The notes: generated from the sequence alone by a model not told the origin. A stretch of 64,000 nt of DNA from Alphaproteobacteria bacterium (GCA_964291285.2 OZ219786.1:32001-96000); one strand, 5' to 3'. Positions 11,500 to 45,380 are shown, numbered from the stretch's first letter. Program-made: numbers and translations.

Positions 11500-11536
11500 G
11501 CATGGGGCCAATTTTTCTTTTTTGTTCTAAAATTGC

Positions 11537-11566
11537 TTGACATGAGAGAAAATAAGCCGATATAAG
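11537..11566 (+). promoter_or_regulatory. Sigma70-like promoter for cassette 1
   Basis: TTGACA-N18-TATAAG in an AT-rich patch upstream of the 11787 ORF. Confidence 0.65.
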
Positions 11567-11569
11567 ACC

Positions 11570-11786
11570 CGGAGAAGGGGCCTCCGGAGCCGCTTCTCCG
11601 GCGCCGCCATGGCCGGGCGGCGCCACCTTCGAAAAAATACCCGCAATACCGACGGGAGGGGTGCGTCCCGCGTCTCCCGCGCGCAATCAGGCGCGCGAAC
11701 CGCGCCGGCGCCGACGCGCAGGCCCGCCCGCGCACGATACGCGCGGCAAAGGGTCCGCCGCTCCCGGTCGGACAAGGAGACAGGAA
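11570..11786 (+). promoter_or_regulatory. Conserved structured 5' leader (copy 1)
   Basis: Homologous to the reverse complement of 44858-45095, including a 36-bp identity (11680-11715); several GC hairpins. Confidence 0.65.
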
Positions 11787-12364
11787 TGACCGCAACCGAC
11801 CCCCGACCCGCACTGGCGGCGGCGCTCGCCGCAAAGCTCGCGCCCGCCGCCGAAGCCCTCGCCGCTGCCTATGCCGAAGACCTGAACCCGGAGCCCCCGC
11901 CCCCCGACGACCGCGCCCGCGCCGAATGCCACCGCGCCGCCCGCGCCCAGCTCGACCACCTGCACAAGCTCCTCGCCCTGCTCGACTGGGCCGGCGCCCA
12001 CTTGCCCGAACCGCCCGCCCCGGAACCCGAAGAGGAGCCGTGGGAGCCGCCGCCCCCGGAAGAGGACGATTACGACGGCAGCGAGGACGAGTTCCACTAT
12101 GGCGGCGAGGCTTATGTCGGCAGCCAGGAAACGCCCGAGTTCAGGGCGTGGCTGGAAGACCTCGAACGCCGCCTCGGGCCGGTCCCGCTGGACCAGAGCC
12201 ACCCCGATTGCCTGAACCGTTGCACCGTCAACGAGCGGATATTCGTCGGCAGGCTGATGACGCCCGAATTCAGGGCATGGGACGAACGCCAGCATCGCCG
12301 CGCGGAGGCCTCCATCGACTCGCTGATTGACAGCGCCGGAACCCCGGAACATGACAAAACATGA
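11787..12364 (+). CDS. Hypothetical protein, helical N-terminus plus Pro/acidic region (cassette 1; possibly TerS-like)
   Basis: RBS aaggaga before ATG 11787; ends ...AGTPEHDKT*, like the 43868 ORF. Confidence 0.7.
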
Positions 12365-12376
12365 CACTTCATGACA
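12350..12376 (+). repeat. 3x CATGACA direct repeat, 10-bp period
   Basis: catgacaaaa catgacactt catgaca; contains the stop codon of the 11787 ORF. Confidence 0.85.
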
Positions 12377-12501
12377 TCTCTCTGGAGTGGGCCCCTGGTC
12401 TCGGACACGCAATGCGCGGCGGGTCTTTCCCTGCTCGCCGGCCCGGCGGCGCTGTGCAGGCCATGACACCGGCGGGAGGTCCGGGCTACAGTCCCGGCGC
12501 G

Positions 12502-13875
12502 ATGACCGATATCTCCTCCGCCACCATCGCCGAACTGGGCCAGGCGCTTCGGGCCGGCCGGGTAACGGCCCGCGGCCTGCTGGAACAGGCGCTTGCCAAC
12601 CGCAGCGAGGCGCTGGGCGCCTACAAGCTCTGGATGCCGGACCATGCCGCCCGCGCGGCGGACCTTGCCGATGCCGCGTTCGCCCAGGGCCTCGATTTCG
12701 GGCCGCTGCAGGGCCTGCCGGTCTCGGTCAAGGACCTGTTCGGCCTCGCCGGCGCGCCCACCCATGCCGGCGCGCCGAAGCCGCTGCCGGCCTCCTGGGA
12801 GGCGGAAGGACCTGTCGTCGCGGCGGTCAGGAACGGGCTCGCCGTCGTCACCGGCAAGACGCACACGGTCGAATTCGCCTTCGGCGGCGTCGGCTCGAAC
12901 CCGCACTGGGGCACGCCGCGCAACCCGTGGGGCGGGGAGTCGCACCGCGTGCCGGGCGGCTCCAGCGCCGGCGCCGGGGTCTCCCTGCTGGAGGGCACGG
13001 CGGTGGTTGCGCTCGGCTCCGACACGGCGGGTTCGGTGCGCGTTCCGGCGAGCTTCACCGGCACGGTCGGCCTCAAGACCAGCTACGGACGCTGGTCGCT
13101 CCAGGGCATCGTGCCGCTCAGCCCGTCTCTCGACACCGCCGGGGTCCTGACCCGCTCGGTCGCGGACGCGGCTTTCGCCTTTGCGGCGATAGATCCGGTC
13201 TACCGGACGCCGCCGGGGCCGGCGGACCCGGCCCGCCTCAGGCTCGGCGTGATCGAGAGCCTGTTCGAGGATTGCGGTCCGGGCGTGGCGGAGACCGTGC
13301 GCGCCGCCCTTGCCGAACTGGAGGGTCGCGGCGTGACGGTGGAATCCTTCGACCTGCCGGAAATGGCCGACGCCAGGGCGGTCTTCGCGGAAGGCGGGCT
13401 GGCGGTGCCCGAGTTCGTCGCTTTCATCGAAAACGAACTGCCCGAATTCAAGGCGACGCTTGACCCGAATGTCCGCAGCCGCTTCGAGGCATTCGGGGCA
13501 TTGACCTCGACGGAATATCTGGGCCGCAAGATGCGCATTGCGCGCGCGGCCGCGGCGGCGAACGCCCGGCTCGCCGACATCGACGCAATCGTCGGGCCGA
13601 CGACGCCGATCACCGCCCCGCTCCTGCAGCATGCAGCCGAAGGGGAGGGCTACCGGACGCACAACATGGCGGCGCTCCGCAACACCATGCCGGGCAACCT
13701 CCTGGAGCTTTGCGGACTCACGATCCCGGCCGGCCTCGACGGCTCCGGCATGCCGGTCGGCCTGCAACTCCTGGCCCCGCGCGGCACGGACGAGCGGCTG
13801 ATCTCCATCGGCCTCGCCGTCGAGGGCATTATCGGCCCGGCCTCCCGCCGCCTGGGGACCCCTCCGGGCAAGTGA
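12502..13875 (+). CDS. Amidase signature family protein
   Basis: GPLQGLPVSVKDLF, PGGSSAG, GSDTAGSVRVPA, GMPVGLQL. Confidence 0.9.
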   Translation: MTDISSATIAELGQALRAGRVTARGLLEQALANRSEALGAYKLWMPDHAARAADLADAAFAQGLDFGPLQGLPVSVKDLFGLAGAPTHAGAPKPLPASWEAEGPVVAAVRNGLAVVTGKTHTVEFAFGGVGSNPHWGTPRNPWGGESHRVPGGSSAGAGVSLLEGTAVVALGSDTAGSVRVPASFTGTVGLKTSYGRWSLQGIVPLSPSLDTAGVLTRSVADAAFAFAAIDPVYRTPPGPADPARLRLGVIESLFEDCGPGVAETVRAALAELEGRGVTVESFDLPEMADARAVFAEGGLAVPEFVAFIENELPEFKATLDPNVRSRFEAFGALTSTEYLGRKMRIARAAAAANARLADIDAIVGPTTPITAPLLQHAAEGEGYRTHNMAALRNTMPGNLLELCGLTIPAGLDGSGMPVGLQLLAPRGTDERLISIGLAVEGIIGPASRRLGTPPGK

Positions 13876-13905
13876 ACCCGGCGCCCGTGAAAGGAAGCGC
13901 AATCC

Positions 13906-14688
13906 ATGGCCTATGAGCCCTTCAACCTCGCCGGCAAGGCGGCGCTGATTACCGGCGGCAACAGCGGCATCGGCCTCGGCTTCGCGGAAGCCATCGCCCA
14001 GGCCGGCGGCGATGTCTGCATCTGGGGCACGAACGAGGAGAAGAACGCCGTCGCGCTCGAGGTGCTGCGGCAATACGATGTGAAGTCCGTGGCCATGCGC
14101 TGCGACGTGTCCGACGAGGAGGAGGTCGCCGAACGCTTCGCGGAGACCGTGGCCGCGCTCGGCAAGGTGACGGCCTGCTTCGCCAATGCCGGCGTGTCGT
14201 CGGACCGCCGCGCGCTCAAAGGCGGCTTCTCGACCATGACGACGGCGGAGTGGCGCCGGGTGCTGGACGTCAATCTGGACGGCGTCTTCTTCACGCTCCG
14301 CGCGGCAGCGGGCCACATGGTCGAGCAGGGCATCGCCGGCTCGCTTGCGGCGACGTCGAGCCTTGCCGCCATCATGGGCCAGGCGCGCGGCGAGCATTAC
14401 GGCGCGGGCAAGGGCGCGCTGATCGCCATGATGCGCGCGCTCGCGGTCGAATACGGGCGCAACGGCATCCGCGCCAACAGCGTCCTGCCCGGCTGGATCG
14501 AAACGCCGATGACGGCGCCGGCCTTCAACTGGGACCGTTTCCGCGACGCCGTGCTGCCGCGCGTGCCGGTCGGCCGCTGGGGCGAGAAGGAGGATTTCGG
14601 CGGCATCGCCGTCTATCTCGTCTCCGACGCCAGCCGCTACCACTCGGGCGACACTTTCGTGATCGACGGGGCTTATTCGCTGTTTTGA
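13906..14688 (+). CDS. SDR family oxidoreductase
   Basis: TGGNSGIG, ANAG, YGAGK. Confidence 0.9.
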   Translation: MAYEPFNLAGKAALITGGNSGIGLGFAEAIAQAGGDVCIWGTNEEKNAVALEVLRQYDVKSVAMRCDVSDEEEVAERFAETVAALGKVTACFANAGVSSDRRALKGGFSTMTTAEWRRVLDVNLDGVFFTLRAAAGHMVEQGIAGSLAATSSLAAIMGQARGEHYGAGKGALIAMMRALAVEYGRNGIRANSVLPGWIETPMTAPAFNWDRFRDAVLPRVPVGRWGEKEDFGGIAVYLVSDASRYHSGDTFVIDGAYSLF

Positions 14689-14704
14689 TAGGGGGTTGCA
14701 GAAG

Positions 14705-15481
14705 ATGTCTGAAGGACTGGTTGAAGCAAGCATCGACAGGCGCGGCGTGGGGCGCGTCGCCATCGACAATGAGCGCCGCCTGAACTGCCTGAGCGGCGCG
14801 ACGGCGCAGGCCTTCGCTGACGCGGTGAACGGATTCTCGGGGCGCAGCGACCTCCGGGCGGTGGTGGTGACGGGCAACGGCCCGAAGGCCTTCATGGGCG
14901 GGGCGGACCTGCGCGAACTCGGCGGCCTCGACCCCGTGTCCGGGCGCGCGTTCATCAGCCGCATCCACGCCATGTCGAAGGCGCTTCGGGACTGCCCGGT
15001 TCCGGTGATCGGGCGGATCAACGGCTATTGCCTCGGCGCCGGGCTGGAGGTAGCGGCGGCATGCGACATACGGGTGGCGTCGGACAATGCCGTGCTGGGC
15101 ATGCCGGAGGTCAGGGTCGGCCTCCCGTCCGTGGTGGAGGCCGCGCTCTTCCCGCAACTGATCGGGTGGGGCAGGGCGAAGCTGCTCTGCTACACGGGCG
15201 AGAACATCGATGCGGCGGAGGCGCTTTCCTGGGGGCTGGTCGAAAAGGTGGTGCCGGCCGGCGAACTCGACGATGCCGTGGAGCACTGGGTCGGACAGAT
15301 CCTGGAAGGCGGCCCGCGCGCCATCCGGCTCCAGAAGGAGCTGATCCGCGAATGGGAGGCGATGCCGGTGAACGACGCGATCCAGGCCGGCATCCGCAGC
15401 CTCGTGCGCGCCATGGAAACCGACGAACCGAAGCGCATGATCGCCGAAACACTGGAGCGCCTGGCGAATCGCAAGGGCTGA
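14705..15481 (+). CDS. Enoyl-CoA hydratase/isomerase family protein
   Basis: AFMGGADL, INGYCLGAGLE, MPEVRVG. Confidence 0.9.
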   Translation: MSEGLVEASIDRRGVGRVAIDNERRLNCLSGATAQAFADAVNGFSGRSDLRAVVVTGNGPKAFMGGADLRELGGLDPVSGRAFISRIHAMSKALRDCPVPVIGRINGYCLGAGLEVAAACDIRVASDNAVLGMPEVRVGLPSVVEAALFPQLIGWGRAKLLCYTGENIDAAEALSWGLVEKVVPAGELDDAVEHWVGQILEGGPRAIRLQKELIREWEAMPVNDAIQAGIRSLVRAMETDEPKRMIAETLERLANRKG

Positions 15482-15486
15482 ACGGG

Positions 15487-16587
15487 CTAGGCCGCGGCCT
15501 CCGCTTCCCGGACGATCCAGCCGCCGCCGAGCACCCGGTCGCCCTCGTAGAAGACGGCGGCCTGTCCGGCGGCGATTCCATATTCCGGCTCGTCCAGCAG
15601 GATTTCCACGCCCTCGGCCTGCGGATAGAGGGTTGCGGGCCGGGGTGTAGCGCTCGACCTGATACGGACCTCGGCCTTCTGCCCCTCCGCCGGCCCCGCT
15701 CCGTCTCCGAGCCAGTTGACCTCGCGGACCCGGAAGCGGCGGCGGCCGAGCGCTTCGCGGGGCCCGACCACGACCCGGTGGCGTTCCGGGTCCAGCGCCA
15801 GCACGTAGAGCCGCCCGCCGCCGGCGGCATTGCCGAGGTCCAGCCCGCGCCGCTGGCCGACGGTGAAATTGACGATGCCCTCATGCCGGCCGAGCACATT
15901 GCCGTCCCGGTCCACGATCTCGCCCGGCTCCAGCGCGCCGGGGCGCAGCCGCGCGACGATGTCGGCGTAGCGGCCGTCCGGCACGAAGCAGATGTCCTGG
16001 CTGTCCGGCTTCTCCGCCACGGGCAGAGCGAGCCGCGCCGCTTCCCGCCGAACGCGGTCCTTGGGCATGCCGCCCAGCGGGAAGCGCAGGAAATCGAGCT
16101 GCTCGCGGGTGGTCGCGAACAGGAAATAACTCTGGTCCTTGCCGCTGTCGGCGGCCCGGTGCAGTTCCGGGCCCGGCAGGCGCTGCACATAGTGGCCGGT
16201 GGCGAGCGCGTCCGCTTCGAGGTCCCTCGCCGTTGCCAGCAGGTCGCGGAACTTCACCGTCCGGTTGCACTGCACGCAGGGCAGCGGCGTCTCGCCGGCG
16301 AGATAGCTGTCGGCGAAGTCTTCCATGACGGCGGCCCGGAAGCGGCTCTCATAGTCCAGCACGTAATGCGGGATGCCGATCCGGTCGGCGACCGCGCGGG
16401 CGTCGTGGATGTCCTGGCCCGCGCAGCAGGCGCCCTTGCGCCCGGCGGCCGCGCCGTGGTCGTAAAGCTGCAGGGTGACGCCGACGACCTCGTAGCCCGC
16501 TTCGGCGAGCAGCGCCGCCGTGACGGAACTGTCCACGCCGCCGGACATGGCGACGACCACGCGCGAGGATGCAGGAAGATCGAGCAA
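15487..16587 (-). CDS. mnmA: tRNA-specific 2-thiouridylase
   Basis: [40 protein letters not shown]. Confidence 0.96.
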
Positions 16588-16659
16588 GGAGGACGGTTCC
16601 TGTGGAGAGGTGCCCGGAAACTGGTTCAGTGCCCGCCCGGGGTCAACGGTCCGCCGCGT

Positions 16660-17397
16660 CTAAACGTGCTGGCCGCCGTTCACATGGATTTCCGCACCGT
16701 TGATGTAGCGCGAGGCTTCCGTGCAAAGGAAGAAGATCGTGTCGGCGACTTCTCCCGGCTCTCCCATGCGGCCGACCGGGATGGCGCGGACGATCTCGTC
16801 CGAACCGGGCGAGAGCATCGGCGTGTCGATTTCGCCGGGCGCGATGGCGTTGACGCGGATGCCGTCAGGTCCGAACTCCGCCGCCATCTCGCGCGTCAGC
16901 GCCGCCAGCGCCGCTTTCGACGTGGCATAGGCGGGCCCGGCGAAGCGATGCACCCGGCCCCCCGCGATCGAGGTGACATTCACCACCGACCCCTTGCCCG
17001 CCGCCAGCTCCGTCGCCAGCCCGCGCGCGAGCATCAGCGGAGCATAGAAGTTGACCTGCATGACATGGTGCCAGGCGCTGAGGCGGGTATTGCGCACGCC
17101 GAGCCTGCCGCCGTCATCGCCCTTGGGCGAGACCGCGGCATTGTTGACCAGCGCATGCACGCGGCCGTCGGTCAGCCGCTTGCGCATTTCCTCGATCGTG
17201 ACGGCGAGCCCTTCGGGGTCCGACAGGTCCACCTCGATATGGTCTTCCGGTCCCGCGCCCCACGGGCATATGCCGCCCGGAAAGGACTGCCGCGAGCAGG
17301 TGATGACGCGCCAGCCGGCATCCATGAACTTGATGGCCGTGGCATGACCGATGCCGCGGCTGGCGCCGGTGAGGATGAGGGTTCGCGTTTCCGACAT
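16660..17397 (-). CDS. SDR family oxidoreductase
   Basis: TGASRGIG, NNAA, YATSK. Confidence 0.88.
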   Translation of the reverse strand: MSETRTLILTGASRGIGHATAIKFMDAGWRVITCSRQSFPGGICPWGAGPEDHIEVDLSDPEGLAVTIEEMRKRLTDGRVHALVNNAAVSPKGDDGGRLGVRNTRLSAWHHVMQVNFYAPLMLARGLATELAAGKGSVVNVTSIAGGRVHRFAGPAYATSKAALAALTREMAAEFGPDGIRVNAIAPGEIDTPMLSPGSDEIVRAIPVGRMGEPGEVADTIFFLCTEASRYINGAEIHVNGGQHV

Positions 17398-17435
17398 GGG
17401 CCTCGGGGCAGCATAAAGGCAATGAAAATCGGGCG

Positions 17436-18995
17436 CTACCACACGCCGATGATGAATCCGCGCTTGCGGCTGCCATCGGTGCGCCGCGCAATCTCGTCGT
17501 CGGAAAGCGTGGTTCGGGTGCGCCGAGCACGGAGCCAGGCGAACAGCCGCTCGTGCAGCTCTGCGCGGGCGGCGGCATGGGCCGGGTCGCCGCCAAGGTC
17601 GGCGAGTTCCAGCGGGTCCGCGGCAAGGTCGAACAATTGCGGCCGGTATCCTTCCCAGAACACATACTTCCAGCGCTCCGTGCGGACCATGTAGCCGCGG
17701 GACTCGTCAACGCCGCGCCCGAGCGTGAGGCGGGCGGCGCGGTGGGCGTAGTCGGTCTCGGAGAACACCGCCTCGCGCCGCTCTGCCTTTTGACCGCGCA
17801 GCAGCGGCAGCAGGGAGCGGCCTTCCACCCGGTGCGGCTGGACCTCGCCGCCCGCCGCCTCCACGAAGGTCGGCACCAGGTCGATCGACTCCACAAGGTC
17901 GTCCACGACCGCGCCGGGGCGCCCGGCCGGGTCGTACAGGATCAGCGGGATGCGCACGCTTTCCTCGTGGAACAGCTCCTTCTCGCCGAGCCAGTGGTCG
18001 CCCAGATAGTCGCCGTGGTCGCTGGTAAAGACGATCATCGTGTCGTCCATCCGGCCCTGGTCCTCCAGGAAGGCGAACAGGCGGCCCATATGGTCGTCGA
18101 TCTCCTTCACCAGCCCCATATAGGCCGGGATCACCGCCCGCCGGACCTCGTCGCGGGCGAAGCTCCGGCTGTCCTCATGGGCCATGAAGGCAGCGTGGAC
18201 CGGATGCGGGTCCCGGCGCTCGTCCTCGTGCCGGTTGGCGGCGATGACGGAGTTGGCCCCGTAGAGGCCGTGATAGGGCGCGGGCGCGATATAGGGCCAG
18301 TGCGGCTTGATGTAGGAAAGATGGAGGCACCAGGGTTCTTCGCCCTGCTCGCGAATGAAGTCCATCGCCCGCCCGGTCATGTAGGCGGTCTCGGAATGCT
18401 CCGCCTTCACGCGGGCGGGCAATGGCGCATAGCGCAGATACCATCCGGAGAGCTGTTCGCCGTCCGGCCCCTCGGCGGAGTTGGCGTAGTCGTGCCAGGG
18501 GTTGGGGCTGTCGTAGCCGTGCTCCCGGAGCCAGCGGTTGTAGGCGAGGTCCGGGTCGGCGGACATGTCGGGATGCAGCCCGTCGTCCCGCTCGTAAGGC
18601 TCGAAACCGCACTCCGACAGCAATATGCCGGTGTTGCTCGCCGGATCGATGCCGAGCCGTTGCATGCCCTCCCGGTCGGCGGCCATATGCGTCTTGCCGA
18701 CCAGCGCCGTCCGCAGCCCGAGCGGACGCAGCCAGTCGCCGAGCGTGAGTTCGCCTACTGCCAGCGGGACATTGTTCCAGGTCGCGCCGTGGCTGAACAT
18801 GTAGCGCCCGGTGTAGAAGGACATGCGCGACGAGCCGCAGATCGGCGACTGGCAGTAGGCGCGGGTAAAGCGCGTTCCCTTCGCCGCCAGGCCGTCCAGA
18901 TGCGGGGTCTCCAGGGCCGGATGCCCGTAGCAGGAGAGATAATCCCAGCGTAGCTGGTCTGTCATGATGAAGAGGATATTGCGGACGCGCGCCAT
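17436..18995 (-). CDS. Sulfatase / phosphonate monoester hydrolase family protein
   Basis: NILFIMTDQ, CGSSR (CxxxR formylglycine motif), KPHWP, SDHG. Confidence 0.88.
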   Translation of the reverse strand: MARVRNILFIMTDQLRWDYLSCYGHPALETPHLDGLAAKGTRFTRAYCQSPICGSSRMSFYTGRYMFSHGATWNNVPLAVGELTLGDWLRPLGLRTALVGKTHMAADREGMQRLGIDPASNTGILLSECGFEPYERDDGLHPDMSADPDLAYNRWLREHGYDSPNPWHDYANSAEGPDGEQLSGWYLRYAPLPARVKAEHSETAYMTGRAMDFIREQGEEPWCLHLSYIKPHWPYIAPAPYHGLYGANSVIAANRHEDERRDPHPVHAAFMAHEDSRSFARDEVRRAVIPAYMGLVKEIDDHMGRLFAFLEDQGRMDDTMIVFTSDHGDYLGDHWLGEKELFHEESVRIPLILYDPAGRPGAVVDDLVESIDLVPTFVEAAGGEVQPHRVEGRSLLPLLRGQKAERREAVFSETDYAHRAARLTLGRGVDESRGYMVRTERWKYVFWEGYRPQLFDLAADPLELADLGGDPAHAAARAELHERLFAWLRARRTRTTLSDDEIARRTDGSRKRGFIIGVW

Positions 18996-19102
18996 TGCGG
19001 ATCGGCTCCCCGGCGGTACGGATATTCCTGAGAGTATAGTGCGCCTCACGCCGGCAGCGCGTATGTCTGGCCCGGCTGCAGCGGGGCGGCGATAATGAGG
19101 CC

Positions 19103-20698: not shown

Positions 20699-20871
20699 AG
20701 CGTGCAGACGACATATATGCGGCCCTGGTGGACGCCTACCGGGGGCTGGACGAGGCGGAAAGCCGGAGGCTCGATGCGCGCCTCATCCTGCTGCTGGCCA
20801 ACGAGGTCGACGACGCTGAACGAGTGCTCGCGCTGATTGAGGAAGCACGCGCCGCGGGTGACGCTTCCTGA
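20695..20871 (+). CDS. DUF2783 family small protein (58 aa, below the ORF-track cutoff)
   Basis: Hand translation MKRADDIYAALVDAYRGLDEAESRRLDARLILLLANEV...; GTG overlaps the upstream stop. Confidence 0.8.
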   Translation: MKRADDIYAALVDAYRGLDEAESRRLDARLILLLANEVDDAERVLALIEEARAAGDAS

Positions 20872-20898
20872 AGCGGGTCAGGCGGGCCCGCCGCGGCC

Positions 20899-21729: not shown

Positions 21730-21834
21730 TCCTCAACCCCGACGAGCGGTTATCGAGCGGTCGGCCCCACATCGCCACCCACGCGATGCACGCGATTCAG
21801 AGTATCAGACGGGCCGGTCCTGCGCGATGCCGGG

Positions 21835-23088: not shown

Positions 23089-23165
23089 GACCCGTCTCCG
23101 ACGGAGCAACCGGATGCGAAGCTAACGCTCCCAGCCCGGCGCGTAAAGCATCGGGCGATCCGGAA

Positions 23166-27708: not shown

Positions 27709-27716
27709 CGGCCGTC

Positions 27717-31942: not shown

Positions 31943-31983
31943 TGCCTCCTTCGAGCCGGTGTCTTCCGGTACGTCGGAAACGG

Positions 31984-32202: not shown

Positions 32203-32210
32203 CCCGGTTC

Positions 32211-32402: not shown

Positions 32403-32419
32403 TCTACAGGTTCGTCATC

Positions 32420-34296: not shown

Positions 34297-34352
34297 GATC
34301 TCGCTCGCGGGTTCGGGATTGGTATGGATCGATCGGTATCCTCGCGCCCCGG

Positions 34353-36080: not shown

Positions 36081-36164
36081 GCTCCCCTGTCGTCCTGCCT
36101 TGCCATCCGGGCGGCTCTTAATGCCATGATGCGCGAGGGCGGTCAGGAAAGCGAGAGACGCGGC

Positions 36165-37316: not shown

Positions 37317-37341
37317 CAACCGACGGGGAGCGGCTTTGCCG

Positions 37342-38487
37342 ATGGATTTCCTGACGCCCGAACAGGAGATGTGGCGCGAGACCGTCTTCCGCTTCATGGA
37401 GGAGGAAATCGGCCGCGACTATGTCCGCGAGAAGGACCGCAATCGCGAATACCCCTATGAGGGCTACGCGAAGGTCGTCTCCCAGGGCTGGATCGGCCTG
37501 CTGGTGCCCGAGGAGCGGGGCGGGCAGGGCGGCGACATCTTCTCCTACGCGCTGATGTGCGAGGGGCTGGCGCGTTACGGGCCGGACTTCGCCACCGCGC
37601 TGATGGTGCCGATGTTCACCGCGCAGAACATCGTCCATCACGGCAGCCGGGAGCAGGCCGCGCACTATATCGAGCCGTTCCTGACGGGCGAGATGCGCTT
37701 CGTCATCTCGCTGTCGGAGCCGCAGGCGGGTTCGGACGCCGCCAATGCCCGCACCCGCGCCCGGCGGGACGGAAACGAATGGGTGGTGAACGGGCAGAAG
37801 CTCTGGAATTCGGGCGGCGGCGCGAAGGGCGCCGTGCTGTGCGCTCTGGTGCGCACCGAAGCGGACTCCGCGAAGCATGACGGGCTTTCGGTGCTGCTGA
37901 TCCCGAACGATGCGCCGGGCGTAACCGTCCACAAGGTCGAGGCGCTCGCGCGGCGGGCTACGGGCTCCAACACGATCTTCTTCGACGATGTGCGCCTGCC
38001 CGGCCATGCCCTGCTCGGCGCGGAAGGGCAGGGCTGGCAGATCATGACAGAGCATCTGGAACTGGAGCGCATTTCGATCGCGGCCGGCTATGTCGGCTGC
38101 GCGCAGCAGGCCGTGGACGATGCCTGCGACTACGCCCGCGCGCGGGAACAATTCGGGCAGCCGATCTTCGATTTCCAGGTCATCCGGCATATGCTGGCCG
38201 ACATGCAGACCCGGGTGGACGCCGCGCGATTGCTGACCTACCGCGCCGCTGCGGCGGCGAACGGCGGCGAGCCGTGTCCGAAGGAAGCCGCGATGGCGAA
38301 GCTGTTCGCGTCCGAGACCCTGCAGGAGGTTTCGCGCCAGGGCGTGCAGATCATGGGCGGTATCGGCACTACGCCGGAGGCCGACATGGAGCGCTATTTC
38401 CGGGAGGGCATGCAGGCCACCATCGGCGGCGGCACCAGCCAGATCCAGCGCACCATCATCGCGAGGCATATGCGCCATGGCCGCTAG
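37342..38487 (+). CDS. Acyl-CoA dehydrogenase
   Basis: SEPQAGSD, NGQKLW, REQFG.PI, IGGGTSQIQR. Confidence 0.92.
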   Translation: MDFLTPEQEMWRETVFRFMEEEIGRDYVREKDRNREYPYEGYAKVVSQGWIGLLVPEERGGQGGDIFSYALMCEGLARYGPDFATALMVPMFTAQNIVHHGSREQAAHYIEPFLTGEMRFVISLSEPQAGSDAANARTRARRDGNEWVVNGQKLWNSGGGAKGAVLCALVRTEADSAKHDGLSVLLIPNDAPGVTVHKVEALARRATGSNTIFFDDVRLPGHALLGAEGQGWQIMTEHLELERISIAAGYVGCAQQAVDDACDYARAREQFGQPIFDFQVIRHMLADMQTRVDAARLLTYRAAAAANGGEPCPKEAAMAKLFASETLQEVSRQGVQIMGGIGTTPEADMERYFREGMQATIGGGTSQIQRTIIARHMRHGR

Positions 38488-39013
38488 AACCGGACTCGCG
38501 CTTTTCCTCCTGTTGTCGGCGGGGCCGGCGCTGGCGGCGGACTCGTGGGACAGGATGCTCTGCATGGCGGGCGGCGGCGCGCCGTCGGCGAATGTGCTCC
38601 ACTGCACGCGCGCGCTGGAGGGCGGCCTGTTCGAGACCCCGGAAGAGCGGGCAAGGGGCCTCTTCAAGCGCGGCACGGCGCAGATCGAGACCGGCGCTTA
38701 CAGGGCGGCGGTCGCTGATTTCGACGAGGCGATCGGCCTGCGTCCGGAATACGGAGAGGCCTTCCATAATCGCGGCGTCGCCAAGTGGCGTATGGGCAAG
38801 CTGGAAGCTGCGCTCGCCGATTTCGACGAAAGCGTCGCGCTCGGGCAGGTCGAGCTCTGGCGCGCCTACAAGGTGCGCGGCGACCTCAAGGCTGAAATGG
38901 GGCAGCTGGATGAGGCTCTCGCCGACTATGAGCGCTCGCTCGCCATCCGTCCCGACTGGGACTACGCAAGGAAGGCGCTAAGGCGCGTGATGGTGAGGAA
39001 GCAGGGGAACTGA
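38477..39013 (+). CDS. Secreted TPR-repeat protein
   Basis: Signal peptide plus about 3 TPR repeats (AFHNRG..., ALADY..S). Confidence 0.8.
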   Translation: MAARTGLALFLLLSAGPALAADSWDRMLCMAGGGAPSANVLHCTRALEGGLFETPEERARGLFKRGTAQIETGAYRAAVADFDEAIGLRPEYGEAFHNRGVAKWRMGKLEAALADFDESVALGQVELWRAYKVRGDLKAEMGQLDEALADYERSLAIRPDWDYARKALRRVMVRKQGN

Positions 39014-39029
39014 GCGCCTGACGGTGGCT

Positions 39030-39596
39030 TCACCGGTTTGCGCCGGGCACCCAGAGAACATCGGCGGCGCCCTCGTCGTTGGCCAGACGGGCAGCAACGA
39101 AAAGATGGTCCGAGAGGCGGTTTATGTAGTGCCGTGCGGCCTCGCCAACAGGTTCCTCGCGGGCAAGCGCCGTCATCGCACGTTCCGCCCGGCGGGCCGT
39201 GGTGCGCGCGAGGTGAAGCGCCGCCGCCGCCGGCGAACCGCCCGGCAGTACGAAGGAGTTGAGCGGCGCGAGCGCAGCGTTCATCGCGTCGATCTCGGCC
39301 TCCAGCCGTTGGACCTGTTCCGGCGCGACGCGCAAGGCCCCCCCGGAGCGCCGTTCGCCGCCTTCCGGCGTGCAGAGGTCGGCGCCCAGGTCGAACAGGT
39401 CGTTCTGGATGCGCGCCAGCATCTCGTCCATCCTGCCGGATGTATGCAGGCGGGCGAGGCCGATGCAGGCATTGGTCTCGTCCACCGCACCGAACGCCTC
39501 GACGCGGATGCTGTCCTTGGCGACGCGCGCGCCGTTGCCGAGCGAAGTTTCGCCTTTGTCTCCGCCCCTCGTGTAGATCCTGGTGAGCCGGACCAT
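39030..39596 (-). CDS. pduO: ATP:cob(I)alamin adenosyltransferase (PduO type)
   Basis: IYTRGGDKGETSL, GAVDETN, RRAER, NRLSD. Confidence 0.92.
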   Translation of the reverse strand: MVRLTRIYTRGGDKGETSLGNGARVAKDSIRVEAFGAVDETNACIGLARLHTSGRMDEMLARIQNDLFDLGADLCTPEGGERRSGGALRVAPEQVQRLEAEIDAMNAALAPLNSFVLPGGSPAAAALHLARTTARRAERAMTALAREEPVGEAARHYINRLSDHLFVAARLANDEGAADVLWVPGANR

Positions 39597-39781
39597 CAGG
39601 AGCCGGCCAGCAGCGCCGCCGCGGCGATCAGAACGATGGCAAGGAATTGCAGGCCGACACGAAGTTGCATCAGCTTGTTGCCGTATTTCCGGTTGAAGCT
39701 GCCGCCCCGCATCATCCCGAAAATCCCGATGAACAGGACGAGCGCCACGGCGGCGAGGAAAATCGGGATCAGGAAGGACAT
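39596..39781 (-). CDS. HIG1-like twin-transmembrane small protein
   Basis: Two TM helices with NKLMQLRV..Q; conserved position upstream of pduO. Confidence 0.85.
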   Translation of the reverse strand: MSFLIPIFLAAVALVLFIGIFGMMRGGSFNRKYGNKLMQLRVGLQFLAIVLIAAAALLAGS

Positions 39782-39892
39782 ACAGCCCGGACCTTTCGAC
39801 ACGCTGCCGATATCGCACAATGCCGGAGACGCTCAAGCGTTTCCACTCGATTCGCGCCGCCGATCCAGGCCGCAGGCTTCGTCCGGCTTGCA

Positions 39893-41080
39893 TCAACCGG
39901 CAATGGCGGGTTCCTCCGACAGCGCGGCTTCGGCGTCGTAGCCGTAAAGCCAGATCTGCCCCGGCGGGAAGCCGCCGCGATAGTCGGCGCGGTCCTTCGC
40001 TAGCTTGGCGTTGCGCGCCGCGACCTCCGCCGGGTCCGCCATAAGGCAGTGGTGCTCGATGGCGCGGGACCAGCCCTGCACCCGGTTGGCGCGCTCCCGG
40101 CGCAGCGCCTCGTAGCGTGCAAGGCCGTCCTCGCCCGCGTCCTCGGCAAGGCAGCCGGCCAGCACCCAGGCGTCCTCCAGGCTCATGGCGGCGCCCTGCG
40201 CGTGATAGGGCATCATGGCATGCGCGGCGTCGCCCAGCAGCACCGTTCGCCCGCGCGTCCAGGCAGGCAGGGCCTCCCGGTCGAACAGCGCCCATTCATG
40301 CACGGTCTCCGTGCGCTCCACCATGCGCGTGACCGTGGGCGGGAAGGGCGCCATCGCCGCGGCGGCGTCCTCCACCCGGCCGAGGCGGGACCACGACTCT
40401 GGCGTCTCGCGGTCCGTGCGCGCAATCGCGATCCAGTTCATCAGCCGCCCGGCCGAGACCCAGTAGCGCACCATGCAGGCGTCCGGCCCCCACCAGACGC
40501 CCGACTCGCGCGGAATGTCGAGATCGGCCAGCCGCTCGGCCGGGACCAGCGCGCGCCAGGCGACGGAGCCCGAATCCCGCGCATTGCCCGTGCCGAAGAG
40601 GTGGCGGCGCACCGGGCTGTGGATGCCGTCGGCGCCGATGACGATGTCGGCCTCCACGATCTCGCCGTCCGTCAGAGTCAGCCGCTCTCCGTCCACGGCG
40701 GCGACCTGCGCCCCGAGCCGTATCCGGCCCGAAGGCTGGCGCTTGAGCAGTCCGTCCAGCAGGTCCGCGCGATGGGCGTGGTAGTAGGGATAGCCGAAGG
40801 TCTCGCGCGCTTCCCGGCCGAGCGGGGCCTCGACCAGCATCTCGCCCTCATGGCTGCGGATCGCGAGCCCCTCCGGCTCGACGCCCCACCCGGCCATGTC
40901 GTCTTCGAGACCCAGCCAGTTCAGGATGCGCGTGGCGTTGGGGCTGAGCTGGATACCGGCGCCCACCGCCTCGATGCGCGGCGCCTGCTCCAGCACGACA
41001 GCGTCGATGCCGCGCTTTGCGAGGGAGAGGGAAAGCGCCAACCCGCCGATGCCGGCGCCTACGATAACGATCCGTGCCAT
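39893..41080 (-). CDS. FAD-dependent monooxygenase (salicylate hydroxylase-like)
   Basis: VGAGIGG, GAGIQLSPN, GADGIHS, GDAAH.M.P..AQGA. Confidence 0.88.
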   Translation of the reverse strand: MARIVIVGAGIGGLALSLSLAKRGIDAVVLEQAPRIEAVGAGIQLSPNATRILNWLGLEDDMAGWGVEPEGLAIRSHEGEMLVEAPLGREARETFGYPYYHAHRADLLDGLLKRQPSGRIRLGAQVAAVDGERLTLTDGEIVEADIVIGADGIHSPVRRHLFGTGNARDSGSVAWRALVPAERLADLDIPRESGVWWGPDACMVRYWVSAGRLMNWIAIARTDRETPESWSRLGRVEDAAAAMAPFPPTVTRMVERTETVHEWALFDREALPAWTRGRTVLLGDAAHAMMPYHAQGAAMSLEDAWVLAGCLAEDAGEDGLARYEALRRERANRVQGWSRAIEHHCLMADPAEVAARNAKLAKDRADYRGGFPPGQIWLYGYDAEAALSEEPAIAG

Positions 41081-41098
41081 ACAAGCTGCTCCGCGGGC

Positions 41099-42730
41099 TC
41101 AGTTGCGGCGTTCCAGCAGGCCGCGCGCGATGACGTGGGCCTGTATCTCGGCCGCGCCCTCGAAGATGTTGAGGATGCGGGCGTCGCAGAGGATGCGCCC
41201 GACCTCGTATTCCTGCGAATAGCCGTTGCCGCCATGCACCTGGACGGCATTGTCGGCGTTCGCCCACGCGGCGCGGGCGGCGAGCAGTTTGGCCATGCCG
41301 GCCTCGATGTCGCAGCGCCTGCCGCCGTCCTTCTCGCGCGCGGCGAAATAGGCGAGCTGGCGGGCGATCTGGGTCTCGACGGCCATCCAGGCGACCTTGC
41401 CGGCGACGCGCGGGAAGCCGAGGATCGCCTTGCCGAACTGCCTGCGCCCGGCGGCGTAGTCCAGCGCAAGCTCCATCGCGCGCTCCGCCACGCCCACCGA
41501 GCGCGCCGCGGTCTGGATGCGGGCGCTCTCGAAGGTCGCCATCAACTGCTTGAAGCCCTGGCCCTCCTCGCGACCGAGCAGGTTTTCCGTATCCACCTCG
41601 AAGCCGTCGAAGCCGATCTCGTATTCCTTCATGCCGCGATAGCCGAGCACGGGAATTTCGCCGCCGTCGATGCCGGGGTCCGGGAAGGGGTCGCCGTCAT
41701 CGCCGCGCGTCTTCGGTGCGAGGAACATGGAAAGGCCGCGATAGCCGGGCGTGTCGGGGTCGGTGCGGGCCAGCAAGGTCATCAGGTCGGCGCGCGCCGC
41801 ATGCGTGATCCAGGTCTTGGCCCCGCTGATCCGGTAGGTTTCGCCGTTGCGGACCGCGCGGGTCTTCACGCCGCCGAGGTCCGAGCCGACATCGGGTTCG
41901 GTGAACACCGCGGTCGGCAGCACGGCGCCGCTCGCAATGCCGGGCAGCCAGCGTTCCTTCTGCTCCTGCGTGCCGCCCATCCGTATCAGTTCGGCCGCGA
42001 TCTCCGATCGGGTGCCGAGCGAGCCCACGCCGATATAGCCGCGCGACAGCTCCTCCGTGACCACGCACATGGCCACCTTGCCCATGCCGAGGCCGCCCCA
42101 TTCCTCCGGCACGGTGAGCCCGAACACGCCCATCTCCGCCATGTCTTCGACGACCGCCATCGGGATGAGCTCGTCGCGGCTGTGCCAGCCGTGCGCCGGG
42201 CCGACGATGCGATCGTCCGCAAATCGCCGGAACTGGTCCCGCACCAGGGCGAGCGACTCGTCCTCCAGCCCGTCGGACGGCCTGTGGCCGTCGGCAAGCA
42301 GGGCGGCAATTTCCATGCGCGCGGCATTCGAATTGCCCTCGGCTGCCACGCGCTCGACGGCGGGAAGGCGCAGCGCAGCGCCGTCGATGCCGAGGTCCGC
42401 GGGCCGGACCACTTCTCCCTGCGAGACGGCGATGCCGCCCGCAAGCTGGGCCAGATACTCCCCGAACGCGGCCTGCAGGACGAACCGGTCGAGGTCCGTG
42501 AGACTGTCCGCCGCCTCCAGCCGCTGCGCCCAGCCCAGCATTTCCCGCAGGCCCGCCACGTAGGTCGCGGTCCAGGCGAAGCCGTGGGCGGCGAACTGGT
42601 CGCGCTCGAGCGCGGCGGGGTCGGTCCGGCCGCCGGCCTGCACGCGCGCCGCCACGCTGCCGCGCGCCTCTTCCAGATAGGACCGGGCCGCGCCGAGGGC
42701 CTCTTCGAGGAGGGGGATCGGGAGGGTCAT
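41099..42730 (-). CDS. mcd: Acyl-CoA dehydrogenase, likely (2S)-methylsuccinyl-CoA dehydrogenase (ethylmalonyl-CoA pathway)
   Basis: Long N-terminal extension (QFAAHGFAW.ATYV), GSLGTRSEIA, VLGYRGMKEY, CDARILNIFEGAAEIQ. Confidence 0.75.
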   Translation of the reverse strand: MTLPIPLLEEALGAARSYLEEARGSVAARVQAGGRTDPAALERDQFAAHGFAWTATYVAGLREMLGWAQRLEAADSLTDLDRFVLQAAFGEYLAQLAGGIAVSQGEVVRPADLGIDGAALRLPAVERVAAEGNSNAARMEIAALLADGHRPSDGLEDESLALVRDQFRRFADDRIVGPAHGWHSRDELIPMAVVEDMAEMGVFGLTVPEEWGGLGMGKVAMCVVTEELSRGYIGVGSLGTRSEIAAELIRMGGTQEQKERWLPGIASGAVLPTAVFTEPDVGSDLGGVKTRAVRNGETYRISGAKTWITHAARADLMTLLARTDPDTPGYRGLSMFLAPKTRGDDGDPFPDPGIDGGEIPVLGYRGMKEYEIGFDGFEVDTENLLGREEGQGFKQLMATFESARIQTAARSVGVAERAMELALDYAAGRRQFGKAILGFPRVAGKVAWMAVETQIARQLAYFAAREKDGGRRCDIEAGMAKLLAARAAWANADNAVQVHGGNGYSQEYEVGRILCDARILNIFEGAAEIQAHVIARGLLERRN

Positions 42731-42812
42731 GGGTTCCGGCGGATGCCTCTTTCAGGTGACGCCGTTATAGCAAGACTATACACTTGCGGGCCGCAGTCCC
42801 GGTGCCGCACCC

Positions 42813-43772
42813 ATGCCGCTTCTCGACCCGAGCCCGACCTACAAGCCCTTCCGCTATCCGTGGGCTTACGATGCATGGCTCACGCAGCAGCGCATCCACT
42901 GGCTGCCGGAGGAAGTGCCGCTGTCCGACGACGTGGCCGACTGGCGGCGCATCCTCACCTTGGCCGAACGGAACCTGCTCACCCAGATCTTCCGCTTCTT
43001 CACCCAGGCGGATGTCGAGGTGAACAATTGCTACATGAAGCACTATGCCCGCGTCTTCGAGCCGACCGAGGTGCAGATGATGCTGGCAGCCTTCTCGAAT
43101 ATCGAGACGGTGCATATCGCCGCCTACAGCCATTTGCTGGACACGGTCGGGATGCCGGAGGTCGAGTATTCGGCCTTCATGCGCTACAAGGCGATGCGCG
43201 ACAAATACGACTACATGAAGCAGTTCGGCTCGGACTCGAAGGAAGACATCGCGCGCACGCTGGCGGTGTTCGGCGCCTTCACCGAGGGGGTCCAGCTTTT
43301 CGCCAGCTTCGCCATCCTGCTCAACTTCCCGCGCTTCGGCAAGATGAAGGGGATGGGGCAGATCGTGGCCTGGTCGGCGCGCGACGAGACCCTGCACACC
43401 GAGAACGCCATCCGGCTCTTCCGCACCTTCGTCGGCGAATATCCCGAAGTGTGGACCGATGCGCTCCGCCGGGACCTCGCGGACGCCTGCCGAACGGTGA
43501 TCGAGCATGAGGACGCCTTCATCGACCTCGCTTTCGAGATGGGCGGCGTCGAAGGCCTGGAGGCGGAGGAGGTGAAGTCCTACATCCGCTTCATCGCAGA
43601 CCGGCGGCTGGAACAGTTGGGCCTTGAGCCGATCTTCGCCGTGGCGGACAACCCGCTTTCCTGGATGGACGAGATGCTGAACGGCGTCGAGCACGCCAAT
43701 TTCTTCGAGAACCGCGCCACCGAATACGCCAAGGCCGCAACGCGCGGCAGCTGGGAAGAGGCGTTCGCCTGA
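42813..43772 (+). CDS. nrdB: Class Ia ribonucleotide reductase beta subunit
   Basis: YKPFRYPWA, FFTQAD, EGVQLF.SFA, RDETLH, NFFE. Confidence 0.93.
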   Translation: MPLLDPSPTYKPFRYPWAYDAWLTQQRIHWLPEEVPLSDDVADWRRILTLAERNLLTQIFRFFTQADVEVNNCYMKHYARVFEPTEVQMMLAAFSNIETVHIAAYSHLLDTVGMPEVEYSAFMRYKAMRDKYDYMKQFGSDSKEDIARTLAVFGAFTEGVQLFASFAILLNFPRFGKMKGMGQIVAWSARDETLHTENAIRLFRTFVGEYPEVWTDALRRDLADACRTVIEHEDAFIDLAFEMGGVEGLEAEEVKSYIRFIADRRLEQLGLEPIFAVADNPLSWMDEMLNGVEHANFFENRATEYAKAATRGSWEEAFA

Positions 43773-43794
43773 TCCGGAGGCAAGCCGATTGGCG

Positions 43795-43824
43795 CCGGAC
43801 CCCGGAACAAGTCCGGGCATGACG
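43795..43824. repeat. REP-like hairpin
   Basis: ccggaccccggaacaagtccgggcatgacg, similar to 11471-11499. Confidence 0.6.
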
Positions 43825-43865
43825 AAGGGGCGCATGAGACCGTCCGGCCCAAGGCCCCCCGAAAA

Positions 43866-43882
43866 TGTCATGTTTTGTCATG
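43866..43882 (-). repeat. 2x CATGACA repeat, 10-bp period (copy 2)
   Basis: Reverse complement CATGACAAAACATGACA is identical to 12350-12366 and contains the ORF stop codon. Confidence 0.85.
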
Positions 43883-44857
43883 GTCAGGGGCGGAACCGGC
43901 GTCCTCCGGGCCGGTCCTCCGCTTCTTCCCCTTCTTCTTTTTCTGCTTCTTCCTGCTCGCCGCCGGTCCGCTCCAATCGTCGTCTTCGTCGCCGCCCCGC
44001 TCTTCCCGTTCGAGGCGGCTCTGCCTGCGTTCCTCGACCTCCTCCGGGGCCCAGGGGTCGTAGATGTCGTCGAAGCCGTTGCGGCGCTGGTATAGCCAGT
44101 CATGTTCGGCGCCGTCGGCCCGGTCGTCGTCGGTGCTGTCCTCGTGGCCGGGCGTGTCGGCGGCGGCCCAGGGGCAGTATTCGTAGGTCTCCTCGGGCGG
44201 GTCGTCGGCCGGCGGCAGGTCGTTTGCCGGCGCGGGCGGGGGGCCGAAGCCGACGGGCAGGCGGGAGCGCTCCTCGACGGCCGCGGCGAGCCTGCGGGCG
44301 GCCTCCTCATGTGCGGCCCCGTCGAAGCCCTCCTGCGCCTCCATCGCCTCGCGGCTCTCGCGGTGGCGGGCGAGCGCTCGTTCGGCCCGGGCATGGCCGC
44401 TGCGCACGGCGTCTGCGAGCGGTCCGGGCTCGGTGCCCGCCTCCTGCGCCTCGCCCGCTTCGATCTCGCCGAACTCGTCCTCGTGCGGCAGCGGCCAGAG
44501 GCGGGCCCGGTTCGCGCCGGCCGGACTGACAAGCCCGGCGACCTCGGCCTGGAAGCGCAGCACCCGGAGCATCATGTAGGCCGAGCCGCTGGCGACGGCG
44601 GCATCCCAGGCCTGCTCCGAGCGGGCGAGCAGGATGCGGGCCTCGTCGCGTTCGGTGCGCCGCCACGACAGGCGGATGCGGCGCACGCGCTCAACGATGT
44701 AGGGCCGCTCCAGCAGGGCGCATCCGGTCTGGCGGGCGGAGCGCTCGGCATAGCCGGCCTGCCTTGCGGCGTCTGCGGCATTGCCGGAGGCGGTGTAGTG
44801 GCGGCAGAAGGCCTCCTGGCGGGTGGAAAGCGCGACGGCGGGCTCGATGATGGGCAT
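43868..44857 (-). CDS. Orphan protein with an N-terminal phage terminase small subunit (Terminase_2-type) domain and a long acidic/Pro-rich tail (cassette 2)
   Basis: LSTRQEAFCRHY..SGNAADAARQAGYAERSARQTGCALL..P.I matches the TerS HTH signature; RBS gaaagga; ends AGSAPDHDKT*. Confidence 0.75.
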   Translation of the reverse strand: MPIIEPAVALSTRQEAFCRHYTASGNAADAARQAGYAERSARQTGCALLERPYIVERVRRIRLSWRRTERDEARILLARSEQAWDAAVASGSAYMMLRVLRFQAEVAGLVSPAGANRARLWPLPHEDEFGEIEAGEAQEAGTEPGPLADAVRSGHARAERALARHRESREAMEAQEGFDGAAHEEAARRLAAAVEERSRLPVGFGPPPAPANDLPPADDPPEETYEYCPWAAADTPGHEDSTDDDRADGAEHDWLYQRRNGFDDIYDPWAPEEVEERRQSRLEREERGGDEDDDWSGPAASRKKQKKKKGKKRRTGPEDAGSAPDHDKT

Positions 44858-45107
44858 GGGGTGCGGGTCCTTTCGTTCCGCTGGCGTTCGACAGGCAGGC
44901 CCGGCGGGGAGCGACCCTTATTCGCGCGCAATCGCGGGCGGGCGCGGGCGGGTGTCGGCGCCGGCGCGGTTCGCGCGCCTGATTGCGCGTGCGCGAGGCA
45001 GGCACAGGACGCACTTCGCCTGTCGGCTGAATCGGGGTCGTTCCGCACCGGGCCGGCGCGGGCGGGAAACGGCTCCGGATGCCGCTTACCTTGCACCCAT
45101 CATATCA
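44858..45107 (-). promoter_or_regulatory. Conserved structured 5' leader (copy 2) with an extended -10-like motif
   Basis: Homologous to 11570-11786; TGaTATGAT at the reverse complement of 45099-45107, next to an AT-rich patch. Confidence 0.6.
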
Positions 45108-45380
45108 CGGGTTTTCCTGATTCAGACCATAAACAGAGAAATATTGCCTATATTCTATGAACAAATTGTCGCATCCGTTCATCGTCCCCGCAAAACGGGA
45201 TCATTCCTGACGTCCGATACTGCCGCAGGCCGGGGGGATCAGGACCGGCCGACCGGAGCCGCCACGAGAGTCAGGGCCGGCCCCCGGCTTCTCCGCTCGG
45301 GGGCAAGGACAGGCGCGGGCCGGAGTCCGTTCCTGCCGTTTCAATCTGAACGGATCATGTCCCGGAGCCTCGCCGGACGG

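Follow-up and report, generated by a model that had tools for sequence, protein, structure and literature searches.

A candidate family of modular, high-copy intergenic elements associated with terminase-small-subunit-like genes in sponge-associated Alphaproteobacteria

We analysed a stretch of 64,000 nucleotides (nt) from Alphaproteobacteria bacterium GCA_964291285.2 (OZ219786.1:32001–96000; the whole of it is referred to here as the window and supplies all coordinates given without a contig name), in which two cassettes, A on the plus strand and B on the minus strand, surround different open reading frames (ORFs). We put at roughly one half the probability that both cassettes are members of one genus-specific, high-copy family of modular, recombining intergenic elements, with a protein resembling phage terminase small subunits (TerS) as its DNA-binding factor and without a working packaging module. 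The unit opens with a promoter-like patch rich in AT and a structured, GC-rich leader (~230 nt) with a near-invariant 35-nt core, and continues with a cargo slot and an array of CATGACA heptamers. The host bacterium is sponge-associated (its genome, G000, is 6.13 Mb in 5 contigs, with 68% GC, and is 100% complete), and the window holds only two members of the family, whose parts are as follows.

11500..11566 (+): cassette A, promoter-like AT-rich patch with TTGTTC, TTGACA (11537–11542) and TATAAG (11561–11566), read from the sequence, as is its counterpart in cassette B
11567..11785 (+): cassette A, GC-rich leader, giving 91 BLASTN high-scoring segment pairs (HSPs) in its own genome at E ≤ 1e-5
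11569..11601 (+): cassette A, 5'-terminal leader hairpin P1, with 13-nt arms that are 92% complementary
11681..11715 (+): cassette A, 35-nt invariant core, GCGCAATCAGGCGCGCGAACCGCGCCGGCGCCGAC, exact in 36 of 91 leader copies and with no more than 5 mismatches in loci of relatives
11786..12364 (+): ORF A, 192 amino acids (aa), with no family assignment, a helical hairpin and two beta-hairpin/helix repeats
12350..12376 (+): cassette A, 3' array of three CATGACA heptamers at 10-nt spacing, with a TGA in each frame
12383..12407 (+): TGGAGTGGGCCCCTGGTCTCGGACA, a solo end of an element of the insertion sequence (IS) family IS3; elsewhere the same sequence runs on into IS3-type orfA/orfB
45099..45185 (−): cassette B, promoter-like patch with TTGTTC (45164–45159) and an extended −10, TGATATGAT (45107–45099)
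45064..45090 (−): cassette B, leader hairpin P1, from sequence reading and the leader alignment
44858..45095 (−): cassette B, leader, giving 94 BLASTN HSPs in its own genome at E ≤ 1e-5
44954..44988 (−): cassette B, 35-nt invariant core, identical to that of cassette A
43868..44857 (−): ORF B, 329 aa, with a TerS-type helix-turn-helix (HTH) domain, helices conserved as far as residue ~200 and a low-complexity acidic/Pro tail
43866..43882 (−): cassette B, 3' array of two heptamers, the third being absent in this copy
43827..43860 (−): GGGGGGCCTTGGGCCGGACGGTCTCATGCGCCCC, a repeat resembling an IS3-type end, also found 3' of copy C2:1234413

The two leaders are identical over 35 nt (11681–11715 on the plus strand and 44954–44988 on the minus strand) and share more matching blocks over ~220–240 nt, and the same 17-mer, CATGACAAAACATGACA, is found at 12350–12366 (+) and 43882–43866 (−), where in both ORFs it encodes the final codons HDKT and a TGA stop. 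This common architecture and the repeat-encoded stop had been described in an original prediction made from the window alone, and both were confirmed at the positions given there. It was also right that the bodies of the ORFs do not align (BLASTP aligned an 11-residue tail alone, with an E of 0.15, and a profile–profile comparison gave a probability of 0.4%) and that no phage gene, integrase or transposase lies beside either cassette, as judged by reading the neighbouring ORFs, the translations of which resemble housekeeping genes. The prediction had, however, seen just two dispersed cassettes, where the genome contains ~91–95 leader copies and 121 heptamer clusters.

These numbers come from searches of the host genome in which the HSPs of the two leaders merged into 95 loci, and the 35-nt core was recovered 91 times with 25 or more bases matching. 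There are 86 occurrences of the 17-mer, nearly always 3' of a leader on the same strand, so that the genome-wide count of leader and 17-mer which the prediction had proposed returned ~91 and 86 copies paired by strand. CATGACA itself occurs 901 times compared to ~316 expected from base composition, with adjacent same-strand heptamers exactly 10 nt apart in 252 pairs, and these heptamers group into 121 clusters, of which 101 contain at least three units and 98 have a same-strand core no more than 5 kb upstream. Viewed from the core, 81 of the 91 copies are followed within 1.7 kb by at least two phased heptamers (at a median of 292 nt) and 72 by at least three. As the heptamer spacing of 10 is not a multiple of three, an array of three units gives every frame a TGA that overlaps an ATG. 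The 3' limit of homology amongst close copies is sharp, falling no more than a few bases from the third heptamer, and the 5' limit within subfamilies lies ~100–130 nt upstream of the predicted transcript start.

The consensus of the 91 copies includes TTGTTC and AATTC motifs, a −35-like TTGACA or TTGCAT, a 15–16-nt spacer and TGnTAtGAT, followed by a transcribed-looking region which begins with the P1 hairpin (GGGAAGCGGC...GCCGCTTCCC). An extended −10 (TGnTAnnnT) is present 95–140 nt 5' of the core in 48 of the 91 copies, where the genome frequency predicts ~0.003 per such search window, and patches homologous to that of cassette A are found 5' of other family copies. P1 pairing is kept through two-sided changes at two pairs, each in 7 of 45 aligned leaders. 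A single-sequence fold has a minimum free energy (MFE) z-score of −1.87, and RNAalifold applied to 45 and to 130 leaders returned the P1 hairpin and fragments only, the alignment being degraded by subfamily indels and CG repeats. No Rfam family reached its gathering score in the window, and for cassette B a search at E ≤ 10 gave only two chance-level matches, both of which were inside the ORF.

ORF B matches the Pfam Terminase_2 family (PF03592; E 1.9e-11) over residues 11–70, corresponding to model positions 2–61 of 141, and amongst the PHROG terminase small subunit families it matches PHROG 51 (7.2e-13). Residues 8–59 match PDB 2cmp, 4zc3 and 3zqp, the DNA-binding domain of the phage SF6 small terminase, and in Foldseek the ORF B model (mean predicted local distance difference test score, pLDDT, 62.5, with 157 residues at 70–90) was placed on 4zc3 with a TM(target) of 0.82, an rmsd of 0.8 Å and 40% identity over 50 columns, with nothing besides the DNA-binding domain at E ≤ 0.001. 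Pfam, PDB and Foldseek agree on the TerS HTH which had been predicted for this ORF, for the N-terminal domain only, and there is no Pfam match in ORF B to Terminase_2 positions 62–141, the region of the oligomerisation core and of the C-terminal part engaging the large terminase. There may nonetheless be a remnant of the core, because a few annotated phage TerS align up to residue 122 of ORF B (29–31% identity). The 36 phage-collection records that match ORF B are all less than 60% identical and none covers at least 80% of the protein, IMG/VR gave three distant loci only, and the plasmid collection had no match to cassette B. The ORF B family has at least 308 cluster representatives from metagenome-assembled genomes (MAGs), with lengths of 266–396 aa among the 120 listed, and has conserved residues 1–200 followed by the low-complexity tail; some members have been named 'terminase small subunit' by NCBI. 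Eight close copies have synonymous divergences (dS) of 0.013–0.13 and ratios of non-synonymous to synonymous change (dN/dS) of 0.11–0.47, which argues for purifying selection on the protein.

ORF A had also been predicted to be TerS-like, and this part of the prediction failed, as no Pfam family was matched, a fold search against PDB gave none at E ≤ 0.001, and the profile comparison with ORF B gave the 0.4% probability mentioned above. The best ESM Atlas scores, 0.84–0.85, were under the level that counts. The ORF A model is fairly confident (mean pLDDT 76.9) and consists of the helical hairpin plus two beta-hairpin/helix repeats, and 175 cluster representatives were found at E ≤ 0.001.

The genome has 12 Terminase_2 matches, every one of them within the cassette family (10 full-length and two truncated), and the ORF A family (190–220 aa) has three intact copies and a fourth that is interrupted. 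Most units hold only frameshifted or internally deleted remnants of ORF A or ORF B, in the manner of miniature inverted-repeat transposable elements (MITEs), with many short units retaining the ORF A start codon and N-terminus. The original prediction was to be abandoned if the leader and 3' motif were spread over the genome regardless of ORFs; they are indeed found genome-wide and most bracket no intact ORF, which bears this objection out in part. The larger units are accounted for by inserted IS21, IS3 and IS1595 elements rather than by a resident transposase (a distant partner is not excluded), and no transposase-bearing master copy was found among the longer units. Two units carry other genes in the slot, one a DNA methylase–HNH fusion and the other an isochorismatase-family gene, and the 5' module also stands before a PfkB-like ORF. 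The methylase–HNH unit has a B-type leader in which homology stops ~10 nt before the would-be TerS start codon.

We note several further features of the units and of the spaces they occupy. The methylase–HNH protein is a 400-aa fusion of an N6/N4 DNA methylase with an HNH endonuclease domain (positions 851–2053 of G000:C3:1311600–1316500), and its gene is preceded by a tandem array of at least six copies of the 14-nt unit GCGACGCAGCGGCG. Six copies (C3:196115, C3:941236, C2:676543, C3:201458, C3:685898 and C3:831594) have a mobile element inserted ~170–260 nt after the core, whose ORF starts VPTYPLDRAGEDP and is 599 aa long where complete. The 3' array is often tandemly duplicated with a 31-nt period (17-mer, ~14 nt, 17-mer; C1:518392/518423, C2:332375/332406 and C3:978090/978121), and at C1:1183867–1184374 there are four successive heptamer pairs 95–204 nt apart. 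An IS3-family end (TGGAGTGGGCCCC...) stands 4–7 nt past the last heptamer in 14 of 87 array listings counted by hand (e.g. C2:1256575, C1:691053 and C3:880900), the hand count giving GGAGTGGGCC as the motif after 14 array ends; at some copies this continues into full orfA/orfB and at others it is a solo end, and this IS3-family element seems to favour the array end as a target. Repetitive extragenic palindromic (REP)-like inverted repeats occur 5' of cassette A at 11260–11480 (e.g. GGCGCGTATCGAAGGACGG...CCGTCCTTCGATACGCGCC and CCTCATCCTGAGT...ACTCAGGATGAGG), and are other repeat families accumulating in the same intergenic spaces. The genome also has four RVT_1 reverse transcriptase genes, of which C1:86370–87125 and C4:287134–287889 share score and E-value and each lie in a 569-aa frame.

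We searched 41 genomes for the components of the family, namely G000, 16 others of the same genus and 24 from outside the genus (the same-genus counts leave out G000). The leader is present in 13/16 genomes of the genus and 0/24 outside it, and triple heptamer arrays are found in the same 13/16 and in 0/24 outside; the TerS profile matches in 12/16 and 2/24 (weak N-terminal matches in G021 and G033), and the ORF A profile in 14/16 and 0/24. Both ORF families are multicopy across the genus. There are 9–171 triple arrays per positive genome (111 in G000), with a reversed-pattern control giving 0 in all 41 genomes. G008 has the leader with only 9 arrays and no TerS match, the other positive genomes having 33–171 arrays, and G001, G003 and G013 are without leader, arrays, TerS and ORF A, the exception being one ORF A remnant in G013. 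It should be noted that the genomes compared are kin and that co-occurrence counts are not independent. Records with relatives of the family are Alphaproteobacteria or Rhodospirillaceae MAGs, including one from Spongia, and the sequencing runs containing family sequence are mostly sponge metagenomes. At loci where the TerS-like genes are 45–59% identical, phased nnTGAC(A/G) repeats occur at or after the end of the ORF in 8/12, and a short AT-rich promoter lies directly before the gene with no 35-nt core. This suggests that the pairing of gene and repeats is older than the long leader, as these distant loci have the phased repeats but not the core. Of the stand-alone terS gene with a cis-site that had been predicted, the link between gene and repeat is supported, including at the 8/12 distant loci.

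Comparison of ten TerS copies (45 pairs) found ORFs that are 82–99% identical and leaders that are 83–98% identical, with identities of 33–68% over the 115 nt upstream of the predicted start. In one pair (C2:1111099 and C4:128428) identity is ~100% between the core and the third heptamer, compared to ~80% for the 5' leader and 44% for the promoter patch, and another pair of TerS copies is identical from the −35 onward. Because of these mosaic identity tracts, we read the sequences as suggesting frequent recombination or gene conversion among copies, with the promoter motifs apparently held by selection. A breakpoint test at the core found pairwise-distance correlations of 0.06–0.49 everywhere between 30-nt windows, and no clear drop across the core.

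The comparison of empty and filled sites which the prediction had called for found site A to be empty in 4/5 relatives examined (G006, G014, G016 and G007) and filled in G002, and site B to be empty in G014, filled in G007 and occupied by a short form in G010. A contig from RNA library X23, the only RNA run found, also comes from a relative in which site B is empty (the ratio of core to flanking-gene depth in the X23 contigs is similar to that of DNA runs, and this run, available as contigs, is uninformative on transcription). The extra DNA in G000 at the two sites (~11190–12470 and ~43806–45366) also contains other repeats, and no paralogous empty site was found in its own genome. With both window sites empty in relatives and many decayed copies in the genome, the suggestion of a non-autonomous mobile cassette family fits.

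The isochorismatase-family gene provides a case in which the modules surround a host gene, and was compared in ten genomes. It is bare in G014 and G007, where it directly follows its upstream neighbour and is accompanied by neither leader nor heptamers. In G000 and G006, a ~460-nt 5' module lies between the upstream neighbour and the gene and a ~50–75-nt 3' module just past the stop, with conservation of the flank further downstream. Other species show the leader and/or arrays around the gene, with the order element–gene–array in G012 and G009. This difference between bare and flanked forms across species shows that the modules are separable and are able to bracket a gene at its native locus, and it may reflect two separate insertions, a loss in G014 and G007, or recombination between arrays.

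We propose that the phased TGACA heptamers of the 3' array are probably binding sites for the TerS-like protein, which would also bind similar motifs in and beside the −35 region. Once bound it would mark or regulate family copies, with short copies persisting by keeping their cis sites and spread to new sites needing a function supplied in trans, and the family would not be a working phage or gene transfer agent (GTA) packaging module in this genome. In phages, TerS-type DNA-binding domains bind repeated sites near their own gene. We infer binding to the heptamers because of this behaviour of the domain class, because the repeats accompany the gene in two clades, and because the −35 region itself carries TGACA.

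A number of observations weigh against this proposal. The link between the protein and the heptamers rests on co-occurrence among related, non-independent genomes, and in G033, which belongs to another family of the class, there is a multicopy TerS-HTH family with nine matches and no CATGAC arrays. No transposase, integrase or target-site duplication was found for the family, there is no terminal inverted repeat, and no inverted pair connects the 5' and 3' boundaries in either cassette. The empty-site junctions are not clean and no target-site duplication is readable at them, the junctions being blurred because other repeats adjoin the elements. The leader and array modules may be independent entities, as 23 of the 121 heptamer clusters have no leader and leaders without arrays also occur. 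Finally, a simple sigma-70 scanner called neither promoter-like patch in the window; it demands a 16–18-nt spacer and a −10 that ends in T, and missed both patches because the spacer is 15–16 nt or the −10 ends in G, so that the putative promoter of the family is our own reading of the motifs and not the call of a tool.

The G033 copies (274–289 aa in three copies read intact) sit among REP-like repeats, and a promoter-like motif, CTTGTAnTCCTAGGACTATAAGCGC, is present in 4/6 copies inspected. This second, independent multicopy family suggests that TerS-like genes standing alone have repeatedly become selfish units among these symbionts. A bolder proposal, possible but doubtful, is that we are dealing with a new class of bacterial element in which a terminase-type DNA-binding protein, and not a cis-encoded transposase or integrase, maintains and spreads two-module units; the modules would then swap cargo by recombination at the core and array, and could even bracket ordinary host genes.

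Other explanations assign the units to a phage or to the host. They could be packaging-initiation or decoy modules, as had been predicted, in which the TerS-like protein on its array would present the large terminase of a GTA or of an infecting phage with a pac-like site, so that host DNA enters capsids (by transduction or hitch-hiking) or the terminase is diverted as a defence. In several pac phages the pac site is at or inside the 3' end of terS, and the position of the heptamers at or within the 3' end of the gene recalls this, as do the genuine TerS DNA-binding domain, the alignment of ORF B to residue 122 with annotated phage TerS (29–31% identity), and the sharp homology boundary right after the third heptamer. 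What is missing is the motor, as Terminase_6N (PF03237), TerL_ATPase (PF03354) and Terminase_3 (PF04466) have 0 matches in the 100%-complete genome (controls were positive; other large terminase families were not searched). The Pfam model is matched at positions 2–61 of 141 only and the remainder of the ORF B model has no TerS fold match, IMG/VR has three distant matches and 0/36 phage records cover at least 80% of the protein, most units have no TerS gene, and no phage genes adjoin either cassette. We consider this explanation unlikely, and the GTA or lateral-transduction role proposed in the prediction is unsupported given the partial Pfam match, the absence of a large terminase match and the lack of a close TerS in two phage collections. 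It seems similarly improbable that the units are kept for the control of host genes as a mobile-promoter regulon, with the 5' module acting as a regulated promoter and 5' untranslated region, the array as a three-frame stop or operator, and the TerS-like protein as a transcription factor. The same 5' module does precede TerS-like, ORF A, methylase–HNH, isochorismatase-family and PfkB-like genes, promoter motifs remain where their surroundings have drifted to 33–68% identity, and arrays of three heptamers offer TGA in all three frames. Remnants are all that most units would control, however, and there is no orientation preference with the downstream gene (37 same and 32 opposite of 69, a rough count from a crude gene caller which covers ~65% of the genome). 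Sites are also gained or lost among close species, and in the distant clade the arrays follow the stop codon and therefore are not needed as stops.

We regard as very unlikely an RNA-based element, either copied via its transcript by one of the genome's reverse transcriptases in the manner of short or long interspersed nuclear elements (SINE/LINE), or having a leader which is a multicopy structured non-coding RNA. Identity does jump near the predicted transcript start (0.33–0.68 for the promoter patch and 0.83–0.98 for the leader in the 45 pairs of ten TerS copies), P1 pairs are kept through two-sided changes, and four RVT_1 genes are available. The 5' and 3' segments of the leader also pair better in cis than with segments taken from other subfamilies, with a mean of −50.4 compared to −47.8 kcal/mol and in 62% of 130, although these are related sequences and the significance is overstated. 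A retro-element is made less credible by the promoter patch, which is upstream of the transcript and yet homologous among copies within subfamilies and so belongs to the homologous unit. The identity tracts begin at differing places (at the core in one pair and at the −35 in another), which fits recombination better, the MFE z-score is just −1.87, no Rfam match beyond chance level was found even at E ≤ 10, and no poly-A-like or reverse transcriptase-recognition feature was identified. The plain duplication of two paralogues with no wider family, which had been set against the original prediction and would agree with the initial sighting of two copies and nothing more, is refuted by ~91 leaders and 86 17-mers genome-wide, by ORFs that are unrelated and by the TerS DNA-binding fold in ORF B, and we can dismiss it as practically impossible.

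The family that we favour, of recombining intergenic elements with a TerS-like DNA-binding factor, resembles several known systems in part. Integron cassettes combine a promoter-bearing platform, promoterless cargo and a recombination-site repeat which closes each cargo, and the family has a comparable promoter platform, cargo and closing repeat, with an array–gene–array order at some loci (G012 and G009). It differs from integrons in being dispersed, with no adjacent integrase by reading (no genome-wide intI search was made), in having a 3' repeat which is a direct heptamer array with no attC-type imperfect palindrome, and in having the isochorismatase gene at its native locus. Phage morons are self-contained promoter–gene units, and the satellites known as phage-inducible chromosomal islands (PICI) and Staphylococcus aureus pathogenicity islands (SaPI) have TerS genes apart from a large terminase. 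In contrast, the family lies outside any prophage or island, has no integrase or replication genes and reaches tens of copies per chromosome. The small terminases of the SF6/SPP1 type (PF03592) have the N-terminal HTH domain in common with ORF B, and short repeats at the 3' end of the gene; ORF B differs in having a long acidic/Pro tail in place of the usual C-terminal part, in being one of 10–17 matches per genome that all have a promoter-like patch of their own, and in having no large terminase (of the families searched) or other phage gene beside it or elsewhere in the genome.

An IS200/IS605-like single-stranded DNA element and an IS91-like element were considered as candidates and rejected on inspection, the former as there is no hairpin at the 3' end and the latter as homology extends upstream of TTGTTC. 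The likeness to MITEs and to populations of the REP doublets known as REPINs (PMC8049555) is in the high copy number, intergenic location, internally deleted copies with both ends, presence or absence between species and long persistence. Compared to MITEs, the family has no terminal inverted repeats, no target-site duplication was seen and no transposase master copy was found, and it is bounded by a promoter-leader at one end and by direct heptamers phased at 10 nt at the other. Putative mobile promoters are near-identical promoter regions before non-homologous genes within one genome (PMC3575422), and the 5' module likewise precedes non-homologous genes; in contrast to these, the promoter of the family is paired with a specific 3' module and two dedicated protein families in ~90 copies. 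The family is best filed with dispersed non-autonomous elements or mobile promoter cassettes. We found no description of such an element in the literature searched (supplementary files aside), and it appears that none has been described before.

If the TerS-like protein truly acts on the arrays, this would be an element family built on a phage DNA-recognition domain and not on a transposase, and would represent a new route for the recycling of phage parts in bacterial genomes. Surveys of prophages and GTAs would be misled by the automatic label 'terminase small subunit'. Across a genus of sponge-associated bacteria the family accounts for a visible part of the intergenic DNA, where it provides ready-made promoters and three-frame stops and breaks short-read assemblies, and with ~90 natural replicates per genome it offers a bacterial repeat population in which gene conversion, decay and cargo exchange can be followed.

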